NCBI GenBank assembly: GCA_964506755.1
Contig: CAZDMH010000006.1
Coordinates: 31,521 to 95,520 of the forward strand
Direction of reading: 5' to 3'
DNA length: 64,000 bases
Source of the DNA: an uncultured Spirochaetales bacterium
GTDB taxonomy: Bacteria; Spirochaetota; Spirochaetia; DAHUYW01
Positions 1,461 through 19,989 of this stretch are shown here, piece after piece (the stretch's first letter is position 1; each line of letters starts with the position of its first letter). The position numbers were made by a program, and so were the translations under genes. Under the pieces are notes generated by a model, which did not search any database, was not told where the DNA came from, and saw only the letters and a program-made list of their open reading frames with translations.

Positions 1461-3284
1461 ATGATGAAAAGAGAGTTCCATCTTCCAAACGCTCGACTAT
1501 CGGTGATCGTCGTCATTGCTTCACTCTTCGCGGCATGCAGCCAATTTACCCTCTACGACAAGTTCAGCAGCATAGACAAGAACCAATCATCGAACAACCT
1601 GGTAATCTCACCAGCTTCAGCGCTCGTCACGACGGGAACGACTGTCACCTTCACTGCCTCGGGTGGGAGCGCGCCCTACGCTTTTGAAGTGGTCTCAGGC
1701 GGCGGGACCGTCAACTCCACGACCGGTGTCTACTCGTCTCCGGTGACCGTGGGAAACGCCGTTGTTCGTCTTTCCGACGCGACCGGTGCAGCAGTGAACG
1801 CGGCAGTGATAGTTATCGCGGCCGGGGGCTCCGCTCGACTCGCCATCAGCCCTCAGACGGTGAGCGTGTCCTTGGGATCGAACCTTACATTTGCGGCCTC
1901 CGGAGGCACCCCTCCCTATTCGTACGCGATAACGCAGGGCGCCGGGTCAATTGATCCGATCACAGGTGTCTATGCGACCCCCGCTTCGACGGGATCGGCC
2001 ACCATTTCGGTTGCCGACAGCGCCTTCAGCGTACGTTCGGCGGACGTGCAGATAGTGGCGCTTGGTGGGGGGCTCGCAATCACGCCGATGTCAGGCGTTA
2101 TCGGAGCCAACACCTCCTTGACCTTTACCGGCTTCAACGGGGTGCCTCCCTACACGTTCAGCATCGTCGCCGGCGCCGGGACGATCAACGGAAGCTCGGG
2201 CGTCTACCACGCGCCCGGGACGGCCGGGACGGCCACCGTGCGTCTGGCCGACAATGTCGGCTCAACGAGCGAAACCGCGGTCACGATCATTGCTCCTCCC
2301 TCTACGGTGGCAATTCGCCCGGTTGCACCGGCGGTATCCGTCGGAGGGACCGTGAACTTCACCGCAAGCGGAGGCTCGCCGCCCTACAGCTTCTCGGTTC
2401 TCGGCGGCGGAGCGGGCGGAAGCGTCAACGCGATCTCCGGTGCGTACGTTGCACCGATTTCCCCCGGAAACGATACCGTACGCGTGACCGATGCCTTCGG
2501 TGGAATCAGCAACGGCGAGGTAACGGTCGTGGCAGCGTCGCAGCTGGTCATCTCACCCTCGACATTGACGATCAGCGCCGGAAACACCTACCAGTTTGGC
2601 GCAAGCGGCGGTGTCGTTCCATATATCTTCACTTTATTTTCGGGTGCCGGTTCGGTGAATGGTGGTGGCCTGTACACGGCAGCTGCAGTCTCGTCGACTG
2701 ACATCGTACGCGTCACGGACAATGTTGGCTCCACGAGCGACGCGGCTATCTCAGTCGTTTCTGCCGGTCCTCTTGCAATCAGCCCGACTTCCGCAGCTGT
2801 TCCTGAGGGCGGCACAATCACCTTTGCCGGCTCCGGCGGCTCCCCGTCCTACATCTTCAGCGTTTCCGCGGGGACCGGCTCTATCGGAGCATACTCCGGA
2901 ACCTACACTGCGACGGGCTCGGTCGGCGCTTCAGCTGCAACCGTGAAGATTTCCGACGCCACCTCCTTCTCTGTGACTGCAACCGTCGACGTCGTTCCCG
3001 CTGCTCCTTCGTCACTGGTCGCAACCGCAGTCGGAACCCACGAGATCGATCTGACATGGACGAATAATTCGAGCGCCGCCGGCGGCGTTGTCATCGAGCG
3101 CAAAGAGGGCAGCAACGGCACGTATGGAATTGTGACTACCGTCGGTCCTGCCGTGAACAGTTATCAAGACAACCCGAGCTCTCCCGCACTCAGCCCGAAA
3201 ACGCTCTATGTCTATCGCGTTCGCGCGGTGGCGGGACCGCTGGATTCACCGTATTCGAATGAGGCTTTCGATGTGACGCTTTGA
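1461..3284 (+). CDS. exported lipoprotein with seven tandem Ig-like (Big-type) repeats and a C-terminal fibronectin type III domain
   Basis: AGGAG RBS at 1452-1456. Signal peptide with lipobox LFAAC. It has 7 repeats of ~78 aa (consensus ..ISP.S..V..G.T.TFTASGGS.PY.F..VSG.G.IN..TGVY.AP...G.ATVR..D..G...). The C-terminus (PSSLVATAVGTHEIDLTWTN...YVYRVRAV) is FN3-like. Confidence 0.7.
   Translation: MMKREFHLPNARLSVIVVIASLFAACSQFTLYDKFSSIDKNQSSNNLVISPASALVTTGTTVTFTASGGSAPYAFEVVSGGGTVNSTTGVYSSPVTVGNAVVRLSDATGAAVNAAVIVIAAGGSARLAISPQTVSVSLGSNLTFAASGGTPPYSYAITQGAGSIDPITGVYATPASTGSATISVADSAFSVRSADVQIVALGGGLAITPMSGVIGANTSLTFTGFNGVPPYTFSIVAGAGTINGSSGVYHAPGTAGTATVRLADNVGSTSETAVTIIAPPSTVAIRPVAPAVSVGGTVNFTASGGSPPYSFSVLGGGAGGSVNAISGAYVAPISPGNDTVRVTDAFGGISNGEVTVVAASQLVISPSTLTISAGNTYQFGASGGVVPYIFTLFSGAGSVNGGGLYTAAAVSSTDIVRVTDNVGSTSDAAISVVSAGPLAISPTSAAVPEGGTITFAGSGGSPSYIFSVSAGTGSIGAYSGTYTATGSVGASAATVKISDATSFSVTATVDVVPAAPSSLVATAVGTHEIDLTWTNNSSAAGGVVIERKEGSNGTYGIVTTVGPAVNSYQDNPSSPALSPKTLYVYRVRAVAGPLDSPYSNEAFDVTL
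1600..2950. repeat. in-frame tandem coding repeats (~235-240 nt unit, 7 copies) inside the 1461-3284 gene
   Basis: Protein-level periodicity is mirrored at the DNA level (recurring ...ttcaccgc(c/a)agcggaggc...ccctac... blocks). Boundaries are approximate. Confidence 0.5.
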
Positions 3285-3547: not shown

Positions 3548-4873
3548 ATGGATTCTACGATTACGACTACGTTTCGTGAGCTGGGCCTTCAAGAGGATTT
3601 GCTCGAACAACTTGCGCGTCAAGGCTTCGAGGTACCGACCCCGGTCCAGACTGAGGCGATCCCCTCAGTTCTTGCCGGGAGGGACCTTCTTGCGTCTGCA
3701 CAAACAGGAAGCGGTAAGACCGCTGCATTCTCTCTTCCCATCATCCAGCTCCTTTCCTCCGAGCGCGGGAGACCGGAGCCGCATCGCCCGAGAGCGCTGA
3801 TCCTCGCCCCAACCCGCGAGCTCGCGGGCCAAATAGGGGATGTTATCAAGATATTCACCAAAGGCGGCAGGATATCGAGCACGGTAATCTATGGGGGCGT
3901 CGGAAAACATCAGCAGATACATGCCCTTCGCCGCGGTATCGATATTGCGATTGCTACTCCGGGGCGGCTTCTCGACCTGATGGGGGAGGGCGCGGTGAGC
4001 CTCGATCATGTGAAGATAATCGTTCTCGACGAGGCTGATCGGATGCTCGATATGGGTTTCATACCGGACGTCGAGCGAATCATCAAGCGCCTACCCGCAG
4101 TTCGTCAGTCGCTGTTCTTCTCCGCCACTCTCCCGGCCGCAGTTGTGCGACTTTCCGGTGAGATGCTCACCGACGCTGTGAGGGTTCGCGTCGAGACAAA
4201 CGAGACGACGCGACCGCGGATTGACCAGCAGGTAATGTTCGTCGCCCGCGAGGACAAGCGCGCCGTGCTCCGAATGATACTCTCCGAACGAGACAGCTTT
4301 CGCGCTCTGGTCTTTACCCGTACGAAGTACCGGGCCCGCGATGTCGCCCGTTACCTCGCAAAAAACGGCATCGCTTCGGACGACCTGCACGGGGACAAGA
4401 GCCAGAACGCACGGACGCGTGCTCTTGCGGACTTCCACAGCGGGAGAATCCAGGTTCTTGTCGCTACCGATATAGCCTCACGCGGTATCGACATCGACGA
4501 CATAGACCACGTCATCAACTTCGAGCTGCCGAACGAAACCGAAAGCTACGTTCATCGCATCGGACGAACGGCGAGAGCCGGCAAGGCTGGAATTGCCCTC
4601 TCACTCTGCGATGCCACCGAGCTGGGGAGCCTCTCGTCGATTCAAAGGGCGCTGGAACAAGCGATACCGGTCTATTCCGATCATCGCTACCACAACGAAG
4701 AGGTGGCGTCTGCGGCCAGCCGAATGGGGCGTGGCCGAGCCGGACGGCAATTTGAGAAGCCCGGCCAAGACCGTCGTTCGCGTTCGGGAGGGGTCCCGCC
4801 GAAATCGCGATTCAGCGGCCGAACAGCCGCGAGCGTACCCAGGCGATCGAGCGGACCGCGTCGCCCTCGCTGA
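3548..4873 (+). CDS. DEAD-box ATP-dependent RNA helicase with Arg/Gly/Ser-rich C-terminal tail
   Basis: Q-motif, AQTGSGKT (motif I), PTRELA, DEAD (VLDEADRMLDMGF), SAT and HRIGRTAR motifs are present. The ORF opens at 3401, but the helicase core begins at the ATG at 3548 (MDSTITTTFRELGL). Confidence 0.9.
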   Translation: MDSTITTTFRELGLQEDLLEQLARQGFEVPTPVQTEAIPSVLAGRDLLASAQTGSGKTAAFSLPIIQLLSSERGRPEPHRPRALILAPTRELAGQIGDVIKIFTKGGRISSTVIYGGVGKHQQIHALRRGIDIAIATPGRLLDLMGEGAVSLDHVKIIVLDEADRMLDMGFIPDVERIIKRLPAVRQSLFFSATLPAAVVRLSGEMLTDAVRVRVETNETTRPRIDQQVMFVAREDKRAVLRMILSERDSFRALVFTRTKYRARDVARYLAKNGIASDDLHGDKSQNARTRALADFHSGRIQVLVATDIASRGIDIDDIDHVINFELPNETESYVHRIGRTARAGKAGIALSLCDATELGSLSSIQRALEQAIPVYSDHRYHNEEVASAASRMGRGRAGRQFEKPGQDRRSRSGGVPPKSRFSGRTAASVPRRSSGPRRPR

Positions 4874-5789
4874 CGACGTCCCTGAGCTCCTCGACCGCGG
4901 CTGGCGTCAGGAGCGCGTCCACCCCCATCAGGAACTCTACGCTTCCACGCAATGCGCCCTGCGCGTCCTCGCGGTAGGGGTATTGATCCATCGAGTACCA
5001 GCCGTCGTAGCCGAGCTCCTTGAGCCAGAACAGCAGCTCGACGAACTCGGCGAAGTGCACTGAGCCGACGATCATGTCGTCGTCCCATGAGCGATAGTTG
5101 TCGTTGAAGTGCATGTGAAACAGTTTGCTGCCGTAGTCAGAAAGGATTACCGCAGCTTCCGCTAAGTTCTCTCCCGCCACGAGTGAGTGCCCGGTATCAA
5201 TGGTGACGCCCACGTTCGGCAGATTTACCTCTCGGGCAACGAGCAGGGTATCGGCCGCTCTGGCCATGAAGGAATGGGTCCGGGGCTCCTTTGGCTTGTA
5301 CTCAAGCGAAAACTGAATGTCGGGGAATGCCTTTGCCGCCTTGGAAACAGAGTCGACGATCCAGCCGCGGCTTTCGCGGTAGTCGTGTTGGAAGACGTAG
5401 TCGTAGCCGTCTTGTCCGGGCCAGAGATTGATGAGAGGACAGCCGAGCGTTCGTGCCAACTCTGCGGCAATCACCGTCTCATCCAGCGCCTGGGCTCTTA
5501 TGTCCGCCATTTTGGAGGTAAATGCCCCCTTTCCCCATCGCTTCTGTGAGAAGTGATCGGGGATGATCGAGACACACTGCAGGTTGTACTTGTCGAGCAG
5601 ACCGCCGATCTCCTCGACGTTGTCCTTTGTGACATCCCAGGTCCCTACGAGCTCGACCCCCTCGACTCCGGAGATGTCGGCGGCTTGTCGTATCATCTCC
5701 TCTTTCGATGGCTGGTCCTTGTAACCCGACGACAGAAATCGGTCGCAGGTATTGCCGAGATTTCCGAGTATGACCGCGTACTTAGGCAT
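4812..5789 (-). CDS. sugar phosphate isomerase/epimerase (xylose isomerase-like TIM barrel)
   Basis: 325-aa ORF with the conserved Glu/His/Asp-containing TIM-barrel blocks of the AP-endonuclease-2 / xylose-isomerase-like family (…VGVTIDTGH…, …FHMHFNDN…). Its 3' end overlaps the helicase tail by 62 nt (convergent). Confidence 0.8.
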   Translation of the reverse strand: MPKYAVILGNLGNTCDRFLSSGYKDQPSKEEMIRQAADISGVEGVELVGTWDVTKDNVEEIGGLLDKYNLQCVSIIPDHFSQKRWGKGAFTSKMADIRAQALDETVIAAELARTLGCPLINLWPGQDGYDYVFQHDYRESRGWIVDSVSKAAKAFPDIQFSLEYKPKEPRTHSFMARAADTLLVAREVNLPNVGVTIDTGHSLVAGENLAEAAVILSDYGSKLFHMHFNDNYRSWDDDMIVGSVHFAEFVELLFWLKELGYDGWYSMDQYPYREDAQGALRGSVEFLMGVDALLTPAAVEELRDVVSEGDAVRSIAWVRSRLFGR

Positions 5790-5993
5790 GATTTCCTCCT
5801 GGTGCTTGCTTCCATCGTGAGGTCAGTGCAGCTGTGAATTTCAGTCTACGATGGGTCCATGGGTTTGTCTACGAAGCGAAAGTGCCAAAATGGCGCGAAA
5901 AACGCCTGTTGACAATCGCCACAAACAGGATGGACGTATCCGGGCTCACCGGGTATTATGATGAACCAAATTCGACGGATTCAGGAGGTTGCG

Positions 5994-6182
5994 ATGGCCG
6001 AAAGAGAAACTCTAGTGATAGCTTCCAAGGTGAAGGCTTACATCAAGGCGAACGGCGGGCTGAAGTGCTCGGCGTCCGTCATCGACGCCCTGTCCGACAA
6101 AGTTCGTTCTTTGTGTGACGCTGCCGTCCGAAACGCGCAGGTCGACAAGCGCAAGACAGTTCAAGACAAAGACGTTCAATAG
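5994..6182 (+). CDS. bacterial histone-fold protein (HBb / DUF1931-like singlet)
   Basis: 62 aa from the ATG at 5994, preceded by an AGGAGG RBS at 5981-5986. MAERETLVIASKVKAYIKANGGLKCSASVIDALSDKVRSLCDAAVRNAQVDKRKTVQDKDVQ aligns by eye along its length with Bdellovibrio HBb and the archaeal HMf histone fold, including the R/KKTV loop (RKTVQ). Confidence 0.6.
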   Translation: MAERETLVIASKVKAYIKANGGLKCSASVIDALSDKVRSLCDAAVRNAQVDKRKTVQDKDVQ

Positions 6183-6222
6183 ACAATCCGGGGGCTTGAG
6201 CGCCGACGCCGCAGCCCCCGGC

Positions 6223-8376
6223 CTACTCCCCGACAGACTGTGTTCTCGACTTCGCTGAGCTCGGAGTGAGCGCTGCCTCGCTGCCCTGAGGATAGGTTGT
6301 GAGCTTAGCGCGAGGATAGTAGTGGGAGAGGATTTGCTCGTAGGTGTAGCCGGCAGATGCCATGCCGGCGGCACCGTCCTGGTCCATGCCTACGCCGTGT
6401 CCCCATCCACCGCCGGTAAAGATGAAGTACTCCGGTAGTCCGGCTGCGCCGAGCTTCGGCCGGTAGGTGAACAGGGTGCTACGGAGATCTCCGAGGACCG
6501 ATCGGATGCGGTCACCTTTCACCGTAAGATTCCCTTCGGAACCGACGAGCTCGATTTTCGAAATCCTGCCGGAGATGCCTCGGCCGCGGGTTATGAGGGT
6601 GAGCACGGTGCCGATTGTTTTGATCCGGTCGGCTCTGCGGGTGATCTCCGCAGCGCTCACCCATTTTGTCCATCGGTATGCCGAGCTCGAAAAGAAGGGT
6701 GGCACCGCGCTGTAGCTCGCGGGGTCGCTCTGCAGCCAAGCGGTGAGCTCGGTGAGTGAAAGCTCGTGTGAACGCTCTCCCAGGAGTATGTCGGGTACGG
6801 CCGCCATTCCGCCTGGGTCCCCCCACACTACCTTGCTGGTCTCCGTATAGCCGCCTGAGTTCGCACTGTAGTAGGCCTTCAACGGTTTTCCGTCATATTC
6901 GAGGATTTGTCCTTGCGTCGCATTGACGGCCTCGGTCGTGGCCTTTGATTCGTTTCCCACTCCCAGATAAGCGGCCGATCGAACCGAACCATAGACATCG
7001 AACCCCTTCTTCGCATATGCCCCCATGGAAGCGAGGGTGTATGAACGCGCGGCAACCGCCTGTGCCTTGAGCGCCTCGGGCGGCCAGAAGGAGTACATCT
7101 CAGAAGGCAGTACCGAATAAAGATACTCCTCGAGCGGCAGTCGATCTACCACGGTGAAGCCTTCTGTGCCCGGAATGAGAATGATTTCGCCGCGGTAGGC
7201 GCGATCGCCGGACGTGGCGAAGAAGCTGCCCTTTTCGCTGAGGAGATCGAAAACTACGGTCGTGCTCTCCGGGCTCATGTAGCGCAGCACTGCCGGCGAG
7301 CTCCATGAGAGGAACGGTGGCTGGCCGGGGCTGGAGAGAGTGATATCCGATCCGTCGCGCTTGAGATCGAGCACCTGGCCTTCCTCACCTCGATAGGTCA
7401 ACGTATCCTTTCTGGAAAGGCTCCGAATCTCATACTTGCCTCCCGTCTTGATCGTCAACGAATGGAGGTGCTCGGCGAGGGCGACCCGGATATGAGGAGC
7501 GAGTGCCGAGGCGCTCGGGAAGGTTGTGACCCGAGGCGGTAGAGTATAGCGCTGGCGGTTGGTTGTCGCAGCGGACTGGCTTGCGACGAGCTGAGGATTT
7601 TCACGCTCTACCTTGGCGATGTCGTTCCTTATCCCTTCGTTGTTGGGCAGGATATCCTGTGCCCGTTGCAGCAGTGGATAGGCTTCCTTGATCTTGCCTT
7701 GAGCGAGAATCGAGCGCGCAAGAGGAGGAATTGCGATCGTCAAATCGGCGTTCTGTTTTCGAACAGTTTGGAAGTCGTCTTGCGCATTCGCGAAGTTTCC
7801 GTCCGCATAAGCAATCTCGCCGAGAAAGAACCACGCCATCGGTTGGTGGTTGTGAATGGCAAGCGCCTCGTGAAACAGGGTCACCGCCTTCGCGGTCTGT
7901 CCGAGATCCATATACAGTACGGCCTCAAGGAAGATGGTCCGGTAGCTCGGCTTTGAGAGGGGAAGCATCGACTTCGCCTCTGTCCGTTGTCCAGCGAGCA
8001 CACGCGCGGTAAAAAGCGCGTTTTCGACTTCGGAGCTGTCGGGCGCAGCGGAACGGAGGCTCTCGAGAGCCTTGATAGCATCGAGGTAGTCGCCCGCCTC
8101 CTCATAAAGGTGAACGAGCTCCCATCGAGGGCGCGGAGCGTCGGTGTTGTCGTGAGACAGTTGCTCGAGTGTCGAGATGCTGCCATAGAAATCGCCGCGA
8201 TAGTACGATGATACGGCACCTGCAAAGCTGGGGGGCGGCGCCTTCTGTGCGACGGTCGTGTCTGGCCGCGGATTGACGCACGAGCCTGCCAGCCCGACGA
8301 TTAGGCATACAAACGCGAGCTGATTGCTCCGGTAGAATCGAGGGTGGTATCGATGCAGGTAATCGAACAGTCGCAT
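6223..8376 (-). CDS. SpoIID/LytB-domain protein with N-terminal TPR repeats (peptidoglycan amidase activator-like), lipoprotein
   Basis: 717 aa with lipobox LAGSC and TPR-like helices in the N-terminal third. The C-terminal SpoIID/LytB domain carries ...YSANSGGYTE... and ...GHGVGM... motifs. Confidence 0.8.
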   Translation of the reverse strand: MRLFDYLHRYHPRFYRSNQLAFVCLIVGLAGSCVNPRPDTTVAQKAPPPSFAGAVSSYYRGDFYGSISTLEQLSHDNTDAPRPRWELVHLYEEAGDYLDAIKALESLRSAAPDSSEVENALFTARVLAGQRTEAKSMLPLSKPSYRTIFLEAVLYMDLGQTAKAVTLFHEALAIHNHQPMAWFFLGEIAYADGNFANAQDDFQTVRKQNADLTIAIPPLARSILAQGKIKEAYPLLQRAQDILPNNEGIRNDIAKVERENPQLVASQSAATTNRQRYTLPPRVTTFPSASALAPHIRVALAEHLHSLTIKTGGKYEIRSLSRKDTLTYRGEEGQVLDLKRDGSDITLSSPGQPPFLSWSSPAVLRYMSPESTTVVFDLLSEKGSFFATSGDRAYRGEIILIPGTEGFTVVDRLPLEEYLYSVLPSEMYSFWPPEALKAQAVAARSYTLASMGAYAKKGFDVYGSVRSAAYLGVGNESKATTEAVNATQGQILEYDGKPLKAYYSANSGGYTETSKVVWGDPGGMAAVPDILLGERSHELSLTELTAWLQSDPASYSAVPPFFSSSAYRWTKWVSAAEITRRADRIKTIGTVLTLITRGRGISGRISKIELVGSEGNLTVKGDRIRSVLGDLRSTLFTYRPKLGAAGLPEYFIFTGGGWGHGVGMDQDGAAGMASAGYTYEQILSHYYPRAKLTTYPQGSEAALTPSSAKSRTQSVGE

Positions 8377-8441: not shown

Positions 8442-9356
8442 TCAAGGCTCCAAATGTGACACCGGAACCAGGAGTACGGGGACGTTGATGCGGCTCAGGA
8501 CTCGGCTTGCGATGCTTCCCTCCCAAATTGCCGACATGCCGCTCTTACCGTGGGTTCCGAGAACCAGCAACCGCGCCTGCCGTTCGACGACGCTCTCGCA
8601 GATGACGGTCGCCGGATCGCCTCGTCGAAGCTCCGCCGACACCGTTAGGCCGAGCCGTTCGAACTCCCGGCATTCGTTTTCCAGGTACTCCTCCGCCTCT
8701 TCGGCCGCCATCTCGAGCATTCGGTCGGCGCTTGTCGGGAGCAACTTCGTGGAATCCTCCCACTTGCCGGGAAGGGTGCGCAGGGTGGGAACGACCATCA
8801 ACAAGTGTACCACGCTCTGCGTTTCAATCGCGAACTCGCCGGCCACCGAGACGCTTTTCTCATGCTCCGGTGTGCCGTCGAGCGGAACGAGGAACGGCGA
8901 AAGCGTGAGGATCTCCGGTGCAACCTTCTGAGAGCTCGGATGCACGATGAGAACGGGGACCGTTCCGAGGGAAACGAGCTTCTGAGCGATGCTGCCGAAC
9001 ACGAGGGTATTGGGGCCGCTTCTCCCGTGGGTGCACATGACGATTAGATCGTGGTCGAACTCTTCCTGATGATCCGCTATGCTGCGAGCGACGCCGCTGA
9101 CCGGAATATCGTGGACATGATAATTCACCTTTATCTCGGAGCCGAAGAAGCGCTCCGCGGTGGAACGGAGATAGTCGTCGGCCTCCTCCTTCGTGGTCAG
9201 GTGACGCTCCCCGTGGATTTCACTCGGAGCCCTTCCTTCGATGATGTGGACAAGTGTCACCTCCGACGCTCCGTGTTTCGAGAGGTAGGCTGCTGCCGAC
9301 AGAGAAGCTTCAGCGAGTTGAGAGCCGTCCAAGGGAATGAGGATGTGCTTAAACAT
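8442..9356 (-). CDS. tandem universal stress protein (two UspA domains)
   Basis: It has two UspA-like halves, each with ...ILIPLDGS.../...LVMCTHGRSG... ATP-binding-type motifs. The ATG at 9354-9356 lies 4 nt downstream of the mntH stop. The ORF extends to 9386. Confidence 0.8.
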   Translation of the reverse strand: MFKHILIPLDGSQLAEASLSAAAYLSKHGASEVTLVHIIEGRAPSEIHGERHLTTKEEADDYLRSTAERFFGSEIKVNYHVHDIPVSGVARSIADHQEEFDHDLIVMCTHGRSGPNTLVFGSIAQKLVSLGTVPVLIVHPSSQKVAPEILTLSPFLVPLDGTPEHEKSVSVAGEFAIETQSVVHLLMVVPTLRTLPGKWEDSTKLLPTSADRMLEMAAEEAEEYLENECREFERLGLTVSAELRRGDPATVICESVVERQARLLVLGTHGKSGMSAIWEGSIASRVLSRINVPVLLVPVSHLEP

Positions 9357-9360
9357 TGGA

Positions 9361-10668
9361 TCAACCCCCCGCAAAGGTTTGAACAAGCAAATAGACGTTC
9401 AGCGCGAGTATGAGCGCCGCCACGATCGAAGAAACGATGGTCGTTGCACTCCGGCTGACAAGGACCCCCATTATGTCCTTGCGCGCCGTAAAGATGATTA
9501 GCGGCAGTATGGCAAAGGGAAGAGCAAAGCTCAAGATCACCTGACTGATTACGAGGGTTCGGGTCGGATCGAGGCCGATCGCGATGACCACTAGCGAAGG
9601 CACCATGGTCACGCCGCGTCTGACCCACACCGAGATCTTCTTGTTTATGAAACCTTGCATGACCACCTGCCCTGCGCTCGTCCCGACCGTGGAGGAGGAG
9701 AGACCCGATGCAAGCAGAGATATCCCGAAGATAACCCGGGCGGCAGATCCGAGAAGCGGCTCGAGCGTCTTTGAAGCGTCCTCTATGGTTGCGATCTGCG
9801 TCAGCCCATGGCGATGGAATGTCGCAGCGGCCATGATGAGCATCGCAGCATTTACGAGCCCTGCTATGCCCATGGCGATGATGACGTCGACGATCTCGTA
9901 GCGAAACAGCCGCTTTAACCGAGAGGGGTCCCGAACGACGATCCTCCCCTGCATCAATGCGGAATGAAGAAAGATAACGTGAGGCATGACCGTAGCCCCA
10001 ACGATTCCTGTGGCAAGCACGATGCTGTCAGGGCCTGAGAAATTGGGCAGAAGCCCCGTGACTGCGAGCTCGTGCCAATCAGGACGATCGAGCACAGTCT
10101 CGATGAGATAGCTTACTGCGATGATACCGACCATCGAGGTGATTATCGCCTCGATTTTTCGGAATCCATATTGCTCGAGAGCAAGGATCAGCGTGGTGGC
10201 AATCCCGGTCAGAAGACCGCCTACGAAGAGCGGAAAGCCGAAGATGAGGTTGAAACCGATAGCCGCCCCGAGGAACTCCGCGAGATCGGTGGCGATCGCC
10301 ATGATCTCCATGATGACCCACATGACGTAGACCACGGAGCGTGGGAAGCGTTCACGGCAGTGCTCTGCGAGGTTCTTCCCGGTGGCGATGCCCAATTTGG
10401 CCGAGAGCGTCTGAATGAGCATCGCCATGAGATTGCTCGCAAGTATCACCCAGACCAGAGTGTATCCGAACTCCGAACCCGCCTGGATGTTCGTGGCGAA
10501 ATTACCAGGGTCGATGTAGGCCACACAGGCGATGAAGGCCGGCCCGAGAAACGGCATGAGGCGCTTGAAGGGGTTGCGTTGCTCCGTTCCGGCAAGCGCG
10601 TCGCGTGCGGCGGCGATCGTCCCGGAGTCGCCGCTGCTCTTGCTGGTTACATCCTGGAAGTCATCCAC
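9361..10668 (-). CDS. mntH: NRAMP-family divalent metal (Mn2+/Fe2+) transporter
   Basis: 435 aa and ~11 TM segments. Signature GPAFIACVAYIDPGNFATNIQAGSEFGY (DPGN motif) and MPH motif region. Confidence 0.9.
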   Translation of the reverse strand: MDDFQDVTSKSSGDSGTIAAARDALAGTEQRNPFKRLMPFLGPAFIACVAYIDPGNFATNIQAGSEFGYTLVWVILASNLMAMLIQTLSAKLGIATGKNLAEHCRERFPRSVVYVMWVIMEIMAIATDLAEFLGAAIGFNLIFGFPLFVGGLLTGIATTLILALEQYGFRKIEAIITSMVGIIAVSYLIETVLDRPDWHELAVTGLLPNFSGPDSIVLATGIVGATVMPHVIFLHSALMQGRIVVRDPSRLKRLFRYEIVDVIIAMGIAGLVNAAMLIMAAATFHRHGLTQIATIEDASKTLEPLLGSAARVIFGISLLASGLSSSTVGTSAGQVVMQGFINKKISVWVRRGVTMVPSLVVIAIGLDPTRTLVISQVILSFALPFAILPLIIFTARKDIMGVLVSRSATTIVSSIVAALILALNVYLLVQTFAGG

Positions 10669-10679
10669 GTGATCTCCTC

Positions 10680-11357
10680 CTATTCCCGGTATTCTGTCTC
10701 GTTCTCACAGACGTTCACGATCAGCTGCCCTGCCGAGTTCTGACCGAGGGTATGCTGCAACTTTCCGACCGAGATTGTTATCAACCCGTCAACGGGCTCG
10801 ATCGATTTGACGACGACACGAGTGCCCAGACTGAGGCCGAGCTCGTCCAAGCGCTCGAGCAGACGCGGATCGCGGTCGTTCACCTCGATGATCTCGGCGC
10901 TCTCTCCGGGTTTCAGGCTGGTGAGTCGGACGCGGCCGTTATCCATTACGGTTCCTTCCCGCGAGGGTATCGGGGAGCCGTGGGGATCGGTAAGCGGATG
11001 ATCGAGCATCTCGTCGATTCGGTCCTCGAGGTACTCCGAGATGACATGCTCGAGGCGCTCCGCCTCGACGTGTACACGGTCCCACGGGACTCCGAGTGCC
11101 TCGGCGAGGTAGGTTTCAAGGAGGCGATGGTGACGAATGGTCTCGAGGGCGATGAGCCTTCCCGCCTCGGTAAGAGTTGCTCCTCGATACGGTGAGTAAT
11201 AGACCAACTCGAGGCCCGCGAGTTTCTTCAGCTGACCGGTCACCGTCGCCGCCGAGAAGCCGAGGCGGTCTGCGAGTAGGGTCGTCGTCGCGTGTTCGCG
11301 GTCCAGCTCGAGCATATATATCTCTTTCAGGTAGTCTTGATCGGTGTCCGTCGTCAT
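10680..11357 (-). CDS. DtxR/MntR-family metal-dependent transcriptional repressor with C-terminal FeoA/SH3-like domain
   Basis: 225 aa with an N-terminal winged-HTH DtxR domain (…LGFSAATVTGQLKKLAG…) and metal-site helices (…RHHRLLETYL…), plus a C-terminal FeoA-like domain. It lies immediately upstream of mntH. Confidence 0.9.
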   Translation of the reverse strand: MTTDTDQDYLKEIYMLELDREHATTTLLADRLGFSAATVTGQLKKLAGLELVYYSPYRGATLTEAGRLIALETIRHHRLLETYLAEALGVPWDRVHVEAERLEHVISEYLEDRIDEMLDHPLTDPHGSPIPSREGTVMDNGRVRLTSLKPGESAEIIEVNDRDPRLLERLDELGLSLGTRVVVKSIEPVDGLITISVGKLQHTLGQNSAGQLIVNVCENETEYRE

Positions 11358-11474: not shown

Positions 11475-14400
11475 CTATTGATCGTACCAATCGGAGCCGA
11501 ATAGCCGCCCCGCGGTGAGATCACGGGCGGCCCGGCTCTCTGTCGTTCTCGGGCTCGAGGCGGTCGTGCCGGCGGTTGTGCCGCCGAACAGCGGGTAGCG
11601 CATGGCAAGAGCGGGGTCGATCTTGCTCATTCGCTCGAAGGTGCGACGAGCGTCCGACTCCTTTCCAGCCTGAACGTAGCTGAATGCAAGACGAACAAGG
11701 ACATGAGCGTTGTCCGGATCGATGCGACCGGCCTTCTGCAGATACTCCTGGGCTTTGCCGTACTGCTTCTGCAGGCTGCAGACGTTCGCGGCGTTTATCA
11801 GCGCGGGCAGATACTCTGTCGAGGAGAGCACCTTCTCGAACGTAGTGAGCGCCTTCTCAAAGAGACCGAACTGGGCGTAGAGGATTCCGAGCTGGTTTTC
11901 TCGGGCCGGGGAGGGAGACAGCGAGAGCGATGCAATGATCGCTTTCTCTCGAGGGACGAGGGCCGACCGGCGGTAGTCCGCCAAATCGGATTCATAAAGC
12001 GACCTCACCCGCTCGCGTTCAGGTATCGGAGTCGAAATGGCGGGACTATAACCCGCCGGTGGATAGAGCCTCCATGCCTCCTTGGTCGTGAACAACTGGG
12101 CAAGCCCGCGCGCGTTTGCCTCCCTCCATTCGACCGCTGCCGTCCGCCACGCCTTCGTGAACCCCTGGTCGACGACGGTCGTCTCGACGGGAATCCATGC
12201 CGTGCCGTCGCGTGAGATAAAATCCTCCGGGGAGGTGAAAAGGCGGGCGGCGAGCTCCGCGGGGACTCCTGAATCGAACGCAGTGAAGATGTGTCCCGGT
12301 GTGGTGATGTAGGCAGTCGAGACGCCGACCGATTCGAGAAGGCTGTTGTAGAGAACTGAAAGATCGTCGCAGTCGCCTGACCTGCTATCGAGGGTTTCGA
12401 CTGGGAAGCGAACGAAATCGATTGAAGAGTTGTCGCGGGAGAGCGATTCGTAGGCGCTCGAGGGATCGACCACATATCGAACCCCCGCTGCGCGCATGGC
12501 AGAGAAAAGCCGGGCCGCCGAGAGAAAGCTCTGCGGGAGGAGGCTCGTCGGGATGTCATCCACCATCCCAATGACCTGACCGCTGAACCGCAGCAATGCA
12601 GGGTCGGTGGTCGTCATGAACGAACCGATCTTTCGATCGTCCGTCCACCGAATTGCGTTTCGATTGAGGATCCCAACTGGCCTGCTGGTCATCGACTGAT
12701 AGACCTTGCCGGCGGCCGTATACGTGACGGTGATCTGGGCCTCACCGGTTGTGCTTTCGCCGCGATCCAGCAGCGAGGAGTCGAACAGGGCTCGAATATT
12801 GATTGACACCGACTGACCGACTCCGAGGGCCGGTGGAAGCTCCGCCGGGCTCGGAGCCTGCATCAATCCGGGAACAAAAAGCGTGAGCGACGGTTCGGTA
12901 AGAACAGTCGGTCCGATGTTCTGCAGAGTAACCGTACCGAGTGCGTGGTCGGCGTAATAGCGGTAGTGAGCCGGAAAGACGCCGCCGATTTCCAGGTCGC
13001 GAAGCAGAAGGCTTGGACCCGCGCCCACGCTCGGCACATGGACGCCGTAGCGGTCGAGCTTCTCACCGGTGAATGGATTCTCAGAGAGAGCCACGGGATA
13101 TGTATCTGTCGCCGATGGGATCGAGATGCGAAAATCGCTGTAGCCTATTCCTGCCGGAGAGTCGACCCGGGTAGCGATAATCCGCGCCTCATGCCAATTG
13201 CGGTACAGAGCTCGGGCGGCGTCGCGCTCGAGCCTGACGCTGGCATCGGTATCCATGAACCGAACGGAGTAGGTCTTCGAGTCTATGTCGTATGCACCTT
13301 GCGTCTCGAGGGGGACGGCAACCGCATACTCTGCTCCGGACTGCGGCAAACGGCGGCCTCGGTAGTGCCGCTCAGTCGCTCGGCCAAGGAGGGACACGAT
13401 CGACGTGCGAAGCCTGCCCCTCCGCGCGGTGTATTCGCTTTCCGTTTCAAACATATCCCGCGGGGCGGTCAGCGCAGGATCGACGGAGGCGAGGATCTGC
13501 CCGGCCAACGCGTCGTCGAGGAAGCTGCGTTGAGCACCCGACACCCTACCGTTTATCGCCGACAGCAGCAGACCGAGAGGTGAGGATCCCACTCCCTTGG
13601 TCGACCAGAGACCGAGGCCGTTGGATTCACTTCGTCCCGTGATTGCAAGCTTCGTGCCGTCGGCCGAAAACGCCATGTCGCGTATGTTTCCATGATGCGG
13701 GGTGAAGGTCGCCACCGGACGCCAGGTGCCGTCTGCGATCCTCCACACCCGTACGTCGCGGGTGTGGCCGGTCAACAGGAACCTGCCGTCGGGCGAGAAC
13801 CGGACTGAATGGACCGGACCCAGCTCGATGTTCCCGACGATCTGTGCCGGCAGAAAGCCGGCGCCCTTCGACCTGCCGTCCCAACCTTTCCCCGGCTTGC
13901 CCGCGCCTGTTGAGTCTTGTCGCCAAATCCGAAGCGTATCCGCGTACCCGGCAGCGAGCCATTTGCCGTCTGGAGAAAAGGCTATTTGCTCGTACTCTCG
14001 GGAGAGGTTTCGCTCCCCGTTGGTGTAGCTGTAGCTCTCTTCGAGTCGGTTGCCCTCAACACTGTAGACTACGACACTTCGCTCCATCTGCTCGCTTTGG
14101 GCCACGGCCACTTGCCGTCCGTCGGGCGAGAAGGAGATTGAAGAGATCGCGGGACCGTAGCCGGTGTACCGGAAGACCGGAGTGAAGCTCCTGCCGTCTC
14201 GTCGCCACAGGAACAGCTCATCGTGCGTCGCGGAAACGAGATGCTCTCCGTCGAGGCTGAGTGCGAGGCTGACCACGGTGGCGTCATGGTCGGTGAGCAC
14301 CACCAGTGGCGCGCCGTTTTTGGGGTTGACGAGTGCGATATCGTTGTCGGTGCGGAACGCGGGGAAGATCAGAAAGGACTCGTCAGGCGCGAACTGGAGG

Positions 14401-14690
14401 ATCGAGGCGTTGCGGAATGTGCCGCCCCAGTAAACTGGCTGCTTGTGTTTCCAGAGGAGCTCCCAGCTCTCGTCGAGCACACGAACGGAGTTCCCTTCGC
14501 TCCAATCAGCAAGCGCTACGAAGCTTCCGAACCGGGAGAGCTCGACATCGACGCCCTGATCTGCCGACGGTACGAAACGGATCTGGTTCGCTTCGAAGTC
14601 CTCGCCGGCGGCGCATGGCGCCAAACCCCATCCGAACGCGAGGAAAGCAACGATCGCGACGATCCCCCCCTTTCGAACCATCGGATTCAC
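11475..14690 (-). CDS. exported WD40 beta-propeller / transglutaminase-like cysteine-protease-core / TPR multi-domain protein
   Basis: 1071 aa with a signal peptide. Repeated ...FSPDG... WD40 blades sit in the N-terminal ~330 aa. The central Cys/His/acid triad reads GDCDDLSVLY...TPGHIF...WIPVETT (transglutaminase-like fold). TPR helices lie at the C-terminus. The annotated start is GTG, and an in-frame ATG lies 3 codons in. Confidence 0.8.
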   Translation of the reverse strand: MNPMVRKGGIVAIVAFLAFGWGLAPCAAGEDFEANQIRFVPSADQGVDVELSRFGSFVALADWSEGNSVRVLDESWELLWKHKQPVYWGGTFRNASILQFAPDESFLIFPAFRTDNDIALVNPKNGAPLVVLTDHDATVVSLALSLDGEHLVSATHDELFLWRRDGRSFTPVFRYTGYGPAISSISFSPDGRQVAVAQSEQMERSVVVYSVEGNRLEESYSYTNGERNLSREYEQIAFSPDGKWLAAGYADTLRIWRQDSTGAGKPGKGWDGRSKGAGFLPAQIVGNIELGPVHSVRFSPDGRFLLTGHTRDVRVWRIADGTWRPVATFTPHHGNIRDMAFSADGTKLAITGRSESNGLGLWSTKGVGSSPLGLLLSAINGRVSGAQRSFLDDALAGQILASVDPALTAPRDMFETESEYTARRGRLRTSIVSLLGRATERHYRGRRLPQSGAEYAVAVPLETQGAYDIDSKTYSVRFMDTDASVRLERDAARALYRNWHEARIIATRVDSPAGIGYSDFRISIPSATDTYPVALSENPFTGEKLDRYGVHVPSVGAGPSLLLRDLEIGGVFPAHYRYYADHALGTVTLQNIGPTVLTEPSLTLFVPGLMQAPSPAELPPALGVGQSVSINIRALFDSSLLDRGESTTGEAQITVTYTAAGKVYQSMTSRPVGILNRNAIRWTDDRKIGSFMTTTDPALLRFSGQVIGMVDDIPTSLLPQSFLSAARLFSAMRAAGVRYVVDPSSAYESLSRDNSSIDFVRFPVETLDSRSGDCDDLSVLYNSLLESVGVSTAYITTPGHIFTAFDSGVPAELAARLFTSPEDFISRDGTAWIPVETTVVDQGFTKAWRTAAVEWREANARGLAQLFTTKEAWRLYPPAGYSPAISTPIPERERVRSLYESDLADYRRSALVPREKAIIASLSLSPSPARENQLGILYAQFGLFEKALTTFEKVLSSTEYLPALINAANVCSLQKQYGKAQEYLQKAGRIDPDNAHVLVRLAFSYVQAGKESDARRTFERMSKIDPALAMRYPLFGGTTAGTTASSPRTTESRAARDLTAGRLFGSDWYDQ

Positions 14691-14751
14691 CCGGGTGCAT
14701 TATACCACACCTCTCCGGTCGGCGTGAGGACAGGGACGAGTAGAGGTATTT

Positions 14752-17505
14752 CTACTGTCCGTACAGGAGGTCGACGACCTTGAGCCCCGCGGAACCGTCG
14801 GTAACGTAGGCGTATCTACCCGAGACCGCAACGTCGCCGGCGCCGTAGTCGACAGGAACCGTGCGGGCGATCGCGGACGCAACGGGACTGCTCAAGTCGA
14901 CGATCTGGAGTCCTGCGGTCCAGTCAGCGACGACTGCATAGCCTCCCGCCACCGAGACTGCGTGTGCGTCCCCATCTGTGTTCACCGTTTGCGGGCTGCC
15001 CAAAGATGAGGGATCGGAAGCATCGGCGAACTTGAGGCCTGTCGTCCCGTCGGCCACGTAGACATAGTCGTCGGCTACTGCTACCCCGCGCGTCACATTC
15101 CCTGTCGCGAGAGTACCCACTGAAACCGGAGATCGCGGGTTGGAGACATCGAAGACCTCGAGCCCGGAGTATCCCTCCACGACGAATGCGTAGTGTCCTG
15201 AAACGAATACATCCTCGGCGGCGCCGATTGTCAAGGCCGTTCCGAGCACGCTCGGTGCAGTTGGATCGGAGATGTCCACAGCCAGAAGCCCGCCGACGCC
15301 CATTCCGACGTAGGCGTAGTCTCCGAAGACGTCGATACCCTTGGATTCGCCGGGAGTATAGAGCGTCTTCACCAGTGTTGCCTCCATCGGCGACGAGACG
15401 TCGACTATGTAGACGGTACCGGCCTGGCTCGCCACGTAGACGTAATCGCCGGACAGAGCAATCCCGTAGGAGAGTCCCGGTATCGAGACAGTTCGGATCG
15501 AATGGGGATGGGCCGGATCAGATACATCGACGACCTCCAGGGTGTCCCAGTCGGTAACGAATGCATAGTCCTCCGACGTCTTGACGAAGTTGGCGTAGGT
15601 ATAGCCAGGATCGGATCCGACAACCTCCGCCTCGATCGGAGCGTTGGTATCGAGGATGCTGAGAAAACCGGCGACGAGGGACACGTAGACAAACTCGCCG
15701 TCAATCGCAACGTCGGAGGCACTTCCGCCAATACTCATCACGGGAACGGCCACAGCCGGCGAAACGGGATTCGAGACGTCGATGATCTCGACGCCATTCG
15801 TACCCTCCGTGACGTAGGCTCGACTCCCTGCAACCGATACGCGAGAGGCATTCGCCGTCGTCGGAGCGGTACCTCTCAGAACTGCGGACTCGGGAATCGA
15901 AATGTCGATGACACACAGTCCCGATGCCCCGTTCGTCACGTAGGCATAGCCGTCTGAGAGCGCGATGTCCCATGCGTTTCCGACTTTGACCGTCCTAACA
16001 ACGGCAGCGGAGGCAATGGGCGATATCTTGACGATGTCGAGGTCGGCGCCATTCGTCACGTAGGCGTAGTTGCCGGATATTTTGATCGAGTAGGCGTATC
16101 CGGAGGAGGTCGTCACGGTCTTTACCACCGACGCAGTCTGGGGAGTGGAGAAGTCAATGACCTGCAGCCCCCCTGAGTGGGCGGCCGCGAAGGCGTAGTT
16201 GCCCTGGATGGCCACGTCACGAGCCCCCTTTGCAGTTGACACATCCCGGACCACCGCAGAGGAGGAGGGAAGAGTCATATCGATGATCCGTACCCCGCCC
16301 GTGGATCCGTCGACAATGTCAGCGTACGTCATGAAGAGGTAATTGCCGGCGGCCGTCACTACGTTTGCGTAGTTGTTTTCGGGTGCGGGAAACCACTGCA
16401 CGACGGAGGCGGAGGTCGGGTTCGAGACGTCGAGAACCTGAACGCCCTGATTGAAAACCGAGACATAAGCGCGAGCTCCGGATACCGAGACCGACTGTGC
16501 CGATGCCGATGTAGCGACAGTACGAACTATCCTGCCGCCGTTGAACGGAGAGGCTGCACCGTGGCTGGGGGCACTGAACAGCGAACCTTCAAGTGCCGGA
16601 CGTACCTTGTAGAAGTATCCGGCGCCGTCAGTTGCGCGCGCGTCGAGATACTCATTCATGGAGCGGGGCGCAGCGATAAGACTGTATGGTCCCGCCCGGT
16701 CGCTGCTTCGCCATACCTCGAAGTCGGAAGTTGCCGCAATCTGCGGCCACTTCAGTCGAATGGCCTTTCCTTCGGGAAACAGGCGAGGAGCGAGCGTACC
16801 CGAAGACAAGGGTATGGCCCGCACGATACCGGACCAGTCCTCCTCACCATTCGACGAGCGAGCCCTCAAGAGAAACACGTGCATGTTCCCGTTCGTGAGC
16901 CCGGAGAGCACCTGAGGAGAGGCAACGTCGAGAAGGGCAGAGCCATAGTAGGTCGCGGAGGGAATTGAGCCGTCGGTAGTGTAGAAGATGTCATAGCTTT
17001 CAGCCAGGGGAACGGCATTCCACTTGAGCGTGACTTCATGGTTTCCGGGGACGACTTGAAAAGACGGGATTGCACCGGCGTCGATTAGAGATATTGTTGC
17101 CGATCCCGTGTTCCCGTTCTTGTCCTTCGCCGTCACGCGAATCGACAAGCTCCCCGAGAGCCCGGCGGTCGGAAACTGAAACGTGAACTTGCCGTCGATA
17201 TCGACGCCGATTGGCCCCGTCAACGATGTCGCGAGCACCTCGTAGTTGACGGTCGCAATTGCCCCCTTGTCGCCGTTCGCCGTTGTAGCGTCCGAAATCA
17301 CGCCGTTCACGATTACCGTCGAGGAATAGGAACTGCCATCCTCAGGCGAGACTATCGAAATCGTGGGCGCCAGCTTGTCCTTGGCCTGCAGGACCATGTC
17401 CAGGCCCATTGGCATCGGGCATGCGATCAGGAGCGCCGCTGAGGCGAGCGTCACGACGATGAAAGCGAATTGCAGGCCTATCATCCTTCTTCGATCGTTT
17501 TTCAT
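14752..17505 (-). CDS. LVIVD-repeat beta-propeller lipoprotein with N-terminal Ig-like and FN3-like domains
   Basis: The ATG at 17503-17505 (MKNDRRRMIGLQFAFIVVTLASAALLIAC, lipobox) has a GGAGGAG RBS and lies 4 nt after the upstream stop. The ORF extends to 17664. About 14 repeats of G.YA.V..G..GL.VVD.S.P..P..V..V are present (LVIVD family). Confidence 0.8.
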   Translation of the reverse strand: MKNDRRRMIGLQFAFIVVTLASAALLIACPMPMGLDMVLQAKDKLAPTISIVSPEDGSSYSSTVIVNGVISDATTANGDKGAIATVNYEVLATSLTGPIGVDIDGKFTFQFPTAGLSGSLSIRVTAKDKNGNTGSATISLIDAGAIPSFQVVPGNHEVTLKWNAVPLAESYDIFYTTDGSIPSATYYGSALLDVASPQVLSGLTNGNMHVFLLRARSSNGEEDWSGIVRAIPLSSGTLAPRLFPEGKAIRLKWPQIAATSDFEVWRSSDRAGPYSLIAAPRSMNEYLDARATDGAGYFYKVRPALEGSLFSAPSHGAASPFNGGRIVRTVATSASAQSVSVSGARAYVSVFNQGVQVLDVSNPTSASVVQWFPAPENNYANVVTAAGNYLFMTYADIVDGSTGGVRIIDMTLPSSSAVVRDVSTAKGARDVAIQGNYAFAAAHSGGLQVIDFSTPQTASVVKTVTTSSGYAYSIKISGNYAYVTNGADLDIVKISPIASAAVVRTVKVGNAWDIALSDGYAYVTNGASGLCVIDISIPESAVLRGTAPTTANASRVSVAGSRAYVTEGTNGVEIIDVSNPVSPAVAVPVMSIGGSASDVAIDGEFVYVSLVAGFLSILDTNAPIEAEVVGSDPGYTYANFVKTSEDYAFVTDWDTLEVVDVSDPAHPHSIRTVSIPGLSYGIALSGDYVYVASQAGTVYIVDVSSPMEATLVKTLYTPGESKGIDVFGDYAYVGMGVGGLLAVDISDPTAPSVLGTALTIGAAEDVFVSGHYAFVVEGYSGLEVFDVSNPRSPVSVGTLATGNVTRGVAVADDYVYVADGTTGLKFADASDPSSLGSPQTVNTDGDAHAVSVAGGYAVVADWTAGLQIVDLSSPVASAIARTVPVDYGAGDVAVSGRYAYVTDGSAGLKVVDLLYGQ

Positions 17506-17509
17506 CTGC

Positions 17510-19711: not shown

Positions 19712-19989
19712 CGCAGCACCTCCTGGCTCGAGATTATTGTCTATGCGCTTCACTCCACCGTGGGGTGGATGTCGCGGTCAGTTAATCCCTGTTCGGTGCA
19801 GACATGATAAGTAGGGCCGGCTGACTCAATTGTATCCCGCCGACGGTCAGCTCGCAACCTGAAATTGCGCACGACCCAAACTCAGCTGCCGCGAGGGTGG
19901 GAAATCGAGACCGGGCAGAGCCCGTGCCGCGACAAATTTGTGGCAAAAAACCGACAATACGGGTACACTAATAGTGAAAAGGGGGGAGC

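Follow-up and report, generated by a model that had tools for sequence, protein, structure and literature searches.

Bacterial histones have been an experimental subject only since 2023–2025; the HBb dimer bends DNA, and the HLp tetramer wraps it. Here we describe a small gene on a 64-kb stretch of DNA from an uncultured Spirochaetales bacterium (64,000 nucleotides of contig CAZDMH010000006.1, referred to below as the window), the 62-amino-acid (62-aa) product of which is supported as an alpha3-truncated bacterial histone by its sequence, predicted fold, conservation, and gene layout. The only bacterial histones to have been characterized experimentally are HBb and HLp (PMC12701072). HBb (Bd0055 of Bdellovibrio bacteriovorus; PDB 8CMP, 8FVX, 9EZZ, and 9F0E) is a "bacterial dimer" alpha3 histone, and HLp of Leptospira perolatii (LA_2458 in Leptospira interrogans; PDB 9QT0-2) is a bacterial face-to-face (FtF) tetrameric histone. 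The alpha3-truncated family is defined by a short alpha2, an alpha3 of 3 to 4 residues, and the motif RxTxxxxD, with alpha2 being 4 to 5 residues shorter than in nucleosomal histones (PMC11390915); HBb's alpha2 is shorter by one turn than HMfB's (PMC11317129). Within the family, the FtF tetramer interface uses R49, S52, N53, and R55, numbered as in HLp (PMC12701072), and the bacterial dimers lack R48/N52 of the FtF profile and carry RKT and alpha1 lysines (PMC11390915). Bacterial-dimer alpha3 histones have already been predicted in the Spirochaetota, class Spirochaetia (PMC11390915; PMC11317129).

The gene under study and its product, MAERETLVIASKVKAYIKANGGLKCSASVIDALSDKVRSLCDAAVRNAQVDKRKTVQDKDVQ, have the following layout:

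5994–6182, plus strand: coding sequence of the alpha3-truncated histone (ATG at 5994, TAG at 6180–6182; 62 aa, 6.7 kDa, pI 9.3)
Predicted elements of the 62-aa protein: alpha1, residues 5–21; loop L1, 22–26; alpha2, 27–50; loop L2, 51–57; alpha3 turn, 58–60

A preliminary description of this DNA had quoted the same peptide, which is encoded letter for letter; it had given the span as 5900 to 6182, of which the end is correct and the beginning merely marks the upstream region. The protein is basic (12 K+R versus 8 D+E). Structural modeling, which the preliminary description had put forward as a check, gave an AlphaFold2 monomer of the helix-loop-helix-loop-turn type (mean predicted local distance difference test score, 85), with helices at residues 5–21 and 27–50, loops, and a single helical turn at 58–60. 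The helix-loop-long helix-loop-helix order of the histone fold is thus seen in the model, and it is seen again in the top Foldseek matches: among PDB entries, the first nine were HBb, HLp, and HTkC at template modeling (TM) scores of 0.71 to 0.82, headed by HBb (~0.8, 44 to 45% identity) and followed by eukaryotic core histones (H2B, H4). Alpha3 is a 3-residue turn (58–60), and the chain ends 2 residues past D60. Alpha2 is 24 residues long in the model and aligns without gaps to that of HBb. The family motif reads R53-K-T55-V-Q-D-K-D60.

Sequence searches gave the same picture. With the single sequence, phmmer returned four distinct sequences from all PDB chains, every one a prokaryotic alpha3-truncated histone: HLp of Leptospira perolatii (9QT0; E = 1.4e-10), HBb of Bdellovibrio (8CMP, 8FVX; ~2e-9), and HTkC of Thermococcus (9F2C; 1e-4). 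The alignments to HBb and HLp contained zero or one gap across residues 2–61. A profile built from the family alignment (51 sequences, namely, the window protein and 50 relatives) matched HBb at 78.8 bits (3.5e-21), HLp at 67.5 bits (1.1e-17), and HTkC at 45.8 bits (7e-11), and the next PDB matches were three archaeal histone chains (8bdk HmvA, 9qv5, and 9qv6). The truncated, HBb-like histone fold proposed in the preliminary description was therefore upheld by both the profile match to HBb (3.5e-21) and the predicted fold (TM ~0.8), and the block-by-block likeness to HBb on which that proposal had been built is far beyond chance (phmmer, 2e-9).

Two further labels in the preliminary description did not hold. 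DUF1931 is a family of pseudodimeric doublet histones. A Pfam scan of the 62-aa protein at E<=10 returned PF00808 alone and no DUF1931 match; in the PDB, "DUF1931" occurs solely as the name that the depositor gave to the HLp molecule. We rejected a DUF1931 pseudodimer of the Aquifex AQ328 type, in which one chain holds two folds, whereas the 62-aa protein has one. The HMf label was likewise dropped. PF00808 scored 20.8 bits against a cutoff of 21.4 and covered only residues 28–62 (47 of the 51 family members touch this model), and the NCBIfam archaea_histone model (NF043032) scored 19.1 bits against a cutoff of 50. The protein shares handshake topology, RxTxxxxD (the RD clamp), and the K-T loop with HMfA/HMfB-type histones but differs from them in that both curated cutoffs are missed, alpha2 is about one turn shorter, the four-helix-bundle residues for hypernucleosome stacking are absent, and alpha3 is cut to one turn; an HMf-type nucleosomal histone was rejected because a full-length alpha3 (~10 residues) is lacking and the chain ends at residue 62. 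The archaeal HTkC (Thermococcus kodakarensis; TM ~0.75, ~32% identity) is closer, with an alpha3-truncated fold, an S/K-K-V-K motif in alpha1, and the RKT loop, but it differs in its host and in forming a tetramer with a conserved R/N interface.

The histone gene is genuine, and purifying selection on it is strong. We found 94 clustered homologues, nearly all of 61 to 62 aa; when 1.84 billion representative proteins were searched with the profile, 1577 clusters passed E<=1e-3, of which 611 also passed E<=1e-10. Against 17 spirochaete orthologues, the proportion of synonymous differences (pS) was 0.64 to 0.83, i.e., synonymous sites were saturated, and that of nonsynonymous differences (pN) was 0.11 to 0.20; wherever dS was computable and unsaturated, dN/dS was 0.08 to 0.10. 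The preliminary description had named absence or lack of conservation of the open reading frame (ORF) in related genomes as grounds for giving it up, and the reverse was found. Invariant columns of the 51-sequence alignment are S11, K12, K14, S26, A44, R53, T55, and D60. Independent gene callers predicted an identical 62-aa product on JGI and Logan contigs with matching neighbors. Two JGI gene calls (P0096 and P0103) start instead at an in-frame ATG at 5958, giving a 74-aa form (the extension corresponds to window positions 5958–5993). This ATG has no Shine-Dalgarno (SD) site, and the longer form is probably a miscall; we favor the 62-aa form because its N terminus, MAE(K/R)ETLV, is conserved, because the ribosome-binding site (RBS) is positioned for it, and because the ATG at 5958 overlaps the −10 box described below.

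We assign the protein with moderate confidence, from its sequence features, to the HBb-type "bacterial dimer" subclass. Since pairwise identity does not discriminate (26/57 to HBb and 24/56 to HLp), we relied on diagnostic positions and hidden Markov model (HMM) scores. HLp R49/S52/N53 correspond to N47/V50/D51 in the window protein, and only R55 is kept, as R53, which is also the universal clamp arginine. The markers of the dimer subclass, namely, the RKT loop, the S-K motif, and the alpha1 lysines (HMM positions 11, 13, and 17), are present: S11-K12, K14, and K18 vary little or not at all, and the protein has R53-K54-T55. An alignment of 33 genomic relatives with HBb, HLp, HTkC, and P0094 split cleanly in two. 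One group, FtF-like, came from Planctomycetota and Gammaproteobacteria and had the motif R..xN(K/R)R(S/T)TV(R/K)PxD(L/F), an L1 shorter by one residue, and frequently a basic tail at the N terminus; the other, HBb-like, had (A/x)D(K/G)RKTV(Q/M)D and a cysteine in alpha2, a pattern that the window protein and all of its spirochaete relatives fit. In L1 length, in RKT versus R(S/T)T, and in QD versus (R/K)P, the window protein fell on the HBb side each time. It scored 90.5 bits on a dimer HMM built from non-spirochaete dimer-type sequences only and 73.5 bits on the FtF HMM (a margin of 17), and leave-one-out controls gave +40 bits for HBb and −40 bits for HLp.

Residue by residue, HBb and the window protein share a single histone fold of similar length, gapless over residues 5–61 at ~45% identity, with a short alpha2, a one-turn alpha3, an L1 of equal length, and no FtF tetramer residues. 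Both have the S-K motif that starts alpha1, the alpha1 lysines, the D-x-R-K-T...D clamp and loop, and a cysteine at the equivalent position of alpha2 (C41 here, C39 in HBb), and HBb is the top match by profile and by Foldseek. The two differ in host (Bdellovibrionota versus Spirochaetota), in the C terminus (~4 residues shorter past the clamp aspartate in the window protein), and in alpha1, which is closer to that of HLp here.

The elements around the gene that bear on its expression are as follows:

4812–5789, minus strand: upstream neighbor, a xylose isomerase-like TIM barrel gene
5909–5914, plus strand: TTGACA hexamer, seen in the sequence, without conservation in relatives and not picked by the consensus scan
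5931–5936, plus strand: −35-like hexamer TGGACG from the consensus scan, likely part of a sigma-70-type promoter
5954–5959, plus strand: −10-like hexamer TATTAT from the consensus scan, after a 17-nucleotide (nt) spacer from TGGACG
5983–5988, plus strand: SD sequence AGGAGG, 5 nt before the ATG
6188–6221, no strand assigned: GC-rich hairpin found by folding, between the convergent stops (histone gene, 6182; SpoIID/TPR gene, 6223)
6223–8376, minus strand: downstream neighbor, a SpoIID and TPR gene, with its stop at 6223, convergent with the histone gene

The histone gene is a stand-alone unit because both flanking genes lie on the minus strand, and the gaps around it are 204 bp upstream (5790–5993) and 40 bp downstream; an intergenic island of about 200 bp of its own and an AGGAGG RBS had both been noted in the preliminary description, correctly. 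Its −35-like TTGACA is also present at the place given, but it has no conservation and we found no −10-like hexamer 16 to 19 nt after it, so TTGACA at 5909 is probably not a −35 element in use. The TGGACG-17-TATTAT pair is kept in position and spacing in three related spirochaete loci (L011, L008, and L019), in which the GACG core of the −35 element is invariant, and TAT.AT of the −10 element is kept in the four-locus alignment. Transcription from it is predicted to start near 5966, giving a leader of ~28 nt. Most other relatives have an upstream promoter of the TCGACA-17-TACTAT type. GGAG-type sites stood at the place equivalent to the SD sequence in 23 of the 23 related loci inspected. At the 3′ end, the hairpin has a minimum free energy of −24.6 kcal/mol (z score, −2.9) and no T-run, and because it lacks a T-run, a scan for intrinsic terminators at the locus found none. 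Most of 19 related loci have a strong hairpin within ~20 nt of the stop codon, and two that are AT-rich at that place (L013 and L024) have classical T-run terminators after the histone stop. The hairpin at 6188–6221 is therefore a likely transcript-end or terminator element. A perfect SD sequence, a promoter of its own, and the hairpin at the 3′ end hint, but no more than hint, that the protein is abundant.

One spirochaete subclade (alignment A3) has a different arrangement, with a histone leader of ~80 nt between a conserved TCGACA-17-TACTAT promoter and the RBS (L001, 2330–2420; L002, 5916–6006; L003, L004, L005, and L012). This leader contains a GC-rich hairpin of variable sequence, with several compensatory base pair changes, flanked by conserved ACCG ... 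CGGAAAAAT, and may be regulatory. A leader of the A3 type is absent from the window.

Taken as a whole, the locus is probably best explained as encoding an HBb-like singlet histone of the bacterial-dimer type, expressed from its own promoter and acting as a DNA-bending nucleoid protein. The gene would be transcribed alone from its sigma-70-type promoter, translated from the perfect SD sequence, and terminated at the GC-rich hairpin. Judged from the crystal structures of the homologous HBb, two chains of 6.7 kDa would pair in antiparallel orientation as a histone-fold handshake dimer, with V13, L33, V37, L40, and V61 as its hydrophobic core (V11, L31, I35, L38, and I59 in HBb; HBb numbering is converted by adding 2). 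Both dimer ends would join L1 (K24-C25-S26-A27) from one chain to L2 (K54-T55 and K59) from its partner, the joint being braced by the R53-D60 "RD clamp" and by D51, which corresponds to HBb D49. At the center, the two alpha1 helices would create a site with their first turns (A10-S11-K12, K14, and K18), and the contacts would be made to the phosphate backbone at minor grooves. The residues that match the backbone contacts of HBb with DNA, as seen in crystals and in molecular dynamics (MD) simulations (PMC11317129), are A10, S11, K12, K14, K18, K24, C25, S26, A27, K54, T55, and K59. Seven of the ten top MD-ranked HBb contacts are identical (S11, K12, K14, K18, S26, K54, and T55), and the remainder are K24 for N22 and K59 for R57, both basic here, and A10 for T8. 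Because all of the contacts are to the phosphate backbone, binding would be independent of sequence; it would bend and compact the DNA, and the protein would act as a nucleoid-associated protein. By analogy with HBb, the most likely function is thus that of a nucleoid homodimer that bends and compacts DNA regardless of sequence. The dimeric state and DNA bending, like abundance and the use of the promoter and terminator, are what we infer.

Several observations weigh against this reading. The margin of 17 bits between the two HMMs is small beside the ~40 bits of each solved reference, so that the window protein is far less polarized than HBb, and the archaeal tetramer HTkC scores higher on the dimer HMM than on the FtF HMM, which means that this test tracks lineage and not oligomeric state as such. 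The binding mode of HBb is itself disputed, with an end-on filament (PMC10627809) set against bending (PMC11317129). The threonine that makes the L1 contact in HBb and HLp is a cysteine in the window protein. The rest of these observations point toward HLp in particular, in which two dimers join into a closed tetramer that wraps ~60 bp of DNA. HLp, from the same phylum, is the best single-sequence PDB match, slightly favored by phmmer over HBb, with pairwise identities to the two about equal; it shares the alpha3-truncated fold (TM 0.71 to 0.78) and the RD clamp. Alpha1 of the window protein, TLVIASKVKAYIK, is almost identical to that of HLp, the N-terminal AE..TL motif is common to both (together, AE.(D/E)TL..ASKVKAYIK), and the chain stops almost directly after the clamp aspartate, as it does in HLp. 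An FtF histone like that of Leptospira is nevertheless unlikely here, because the interface that makes the tetramer is not conserved: R49, S52, and N53 (PMC12701072) are replaced, and R/N is found at these positions in no member of the spirochaete clade, although the tally for column 47 across the 51 sequences (N27/S15/K7/A1/R1; D in 45/51 at column 51) does include one arginine. The motif, shorter L1, and frequent basic tail of true FtF-type relatives are all absent, HLp has RTT and RP where the window protein has RKT and QD, with an L1 one residue longer here, and HBb stands above HLp in both the family profile and Foldseek. Nor is the hlp-SMC-MAP-DUF350 neighborhood of Leptospira (PMC12701072) present, the flanking genes here being the TIM barrel and SpoIID/TPR genes. 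A mixture of this kind, with an HLp-like alpha1 and C terminus and an HBb-like alpha2-L2, could also mean that the Spirochaetia clade is a third functional type between HBb and HLp, and the window protein might serve as the chief protein of chromatin in a free-living, Treponematales-like lineage, a role that would parallel that of HLp in Leptospira; we think this quite improbable. Were it so, C25 might lead to a different oligomer or make DNA binding sensitive to thiol (redox) state. The L1 cysteine, the mixed HLp/HBb character, and the origin of all relatives with at least 65% identity from metagenome-assembled genomes (MAGs) leave a small chance of behavior unlike that of both solved histones.

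Returning to the nucleoid protein that we favor, a histone fold could instead serve a specific regulatory or protein-partner role, as an adaptor or in the manner of NF-Y/CBF, and PF00808, the sole Pfam family touched, does also cover the NF-Y/CBF transcription factors. That match is subthreshold, however, and spans the alpha2-L2 half only, and the close structural and sequence relatives are all non-specific DNA-binding prokaryotic histones. With no partner histone-fold gene nearby, no second copy found in the 64-kb window, no neighbor conserved across lineages that would suggest a dedicated pathway, and invariant residues that are the backbone-contact ones, we consider such a role very unlikely. 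The likelihood that the gene is a chance ORF or a misframed intergenic piece is vanishingly small. The ORF is short and is overlapped by others in different frames (5834–6118 on the plus strand and 6012–6374 on the minus strand), but dN/dS is below 0.1 with saturated synonymous sites, the RBS and start are conserved, and the fold is predicted with confidence; together with the 94 clustered homologues of 61 to 62 aa and the 611 representative clusters at E<=1e-10, these results already refute it.

The finding confirms and localizes a member of a known family, the occurrence of which in Spirochaetia has already been reported from bioinformatic surveys. Neither Treponema nor Spirochaet* was found in the supplements of Schwab et al. 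2024, and a literature search for a bacterial-dimer histone in Treponema found no papers. The clade to which the window protein belongs is well populated and was found here only in MAGs, within Spirochaetia, and because its sequence stands between HBb and HLp, it is a useful third test case for the residues that distinguish dimer from tetramer; it also bears on whether spirochaetes other than Leptospira use histones as major nucleoid proteins. In L1, the DNA backbone is touched by T23 of HBb and T27 of HLp, and at this position 39 of the 51 aligned sequences have a cysteine (C25); relative to HBb, the changes at the contact positions are N22/T23 to K24/C25, T8 to A10, and R57 to K59. The K-C-S motif of L1 recurs in the spirochaete dimer-like clade and in tail-bearing FtF-like Planctomycetota histones (L035, L036, L040, L041, and P0094).

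Genomic relatives with at least 65% identity are all MAGs labeled Treponema, Treponematales, Spirochaetales, or Spirochaetaceae, and more distant ones belong to the Bdellovibrionota, Myxococcota, Planctomycetota, and Chlamydiota. The adjoining SpoIID/TPR protein has named homologues in Treponema and Spirochaetia, and the host, of class Spirochaetia, is probably Treponematales-like. Our guess is that the SpoIID/TPR neighbor is kept only in the closest relatives. When ten neighbors from the window were compared by tblastn with 46 related loci, none lay beside the histone gene, apart from one weak DEAD-box match (L015), and all-against-all clustering of flanking ORFs gave small local groups only. 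As the neighborhood is not conserved beyond close relatives, we draw no operon or pathway from it. A tblastn search of the window with Escherichia coli HU, IHF, and Dps and a Borrelia Hbb-like sequence gave no match in this 64 kb. Scans of the window for structured RNA returned no tRNA (ARAGORN) and no Rfam match at gathering thresholds, and there is therefore no structured-RNA alternative for the locus.

Related forms occur outside this clade. Five predicted viral contigs (L051 to L055; 44 to 87 kb) encode distant relatives of the histone at 39 to 47% identity. Those of L051 (3977–4165; IMG/VR UViG_3300033143_002018) and L052 are 62-aa singlets with the SK, RKTV, and D motifs and their own RBS, in a phage-type context of thymidylate synthase, phosphoesterases, an ATPase, and a weak tail-fiber match. 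They are unlike the "phage histones" that Schwab et al. 2024 described, in which RxTxxxxD is missing and an additional helix follows at the C terminus (PMC11390915). The strongest profile matches in the representative search (P0350 to P0373) have two tandem HBb-type alpha3 folds (126 to 162 aa; for example, P0350, P0351, and P0361), and P0353 and P0358 have a Cys-rich, zinc finger-like N terminus (ZZ-like by eye only) followed by two folds. Judged by sequence, these tandem proteins are natural HBb-type pseudodimers, distinct from DUF1931.

The rest of the window has ordinary chromosomal content, such as transporters, phosphoenolpyruvate carboxykinase (PEPCK), and 2-oxoacid dehydrogenase E2. 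Two ORFs (1461–3284, plus strand, 607 aa; 43617–45368, minus strand, 583 aa) had no Pfam match at 1e-5 and 1e-6. The best named matches of the ATP-dependent PEPCK (60485–62137) are from Bacteroidota (Marinilabiliales, Tenuifilaceae) at 65 to 68% identity, whereas the gene beside the histone gene points to spirochaetes; this may reflect lateral transfer of PEPCK or sparse naming of closer matches, and PEPCK was uninformative as to taxonomy. A metal homeostasis cluster on the minus strand (8442–11357) comprises a DtxR-family repressor with a FeoA domain (10680–11357), an Nramp transporter (9361–10668), and a tandem universal stress protein (8442–9386). Three large repeat proteins are encoded in a row at 11475–19753, also on the minus strand: one with WD40 and TPR repeats (1071 aa), one with LVIVD repeats (970 aa), and one with TPR repeats (747 aa).

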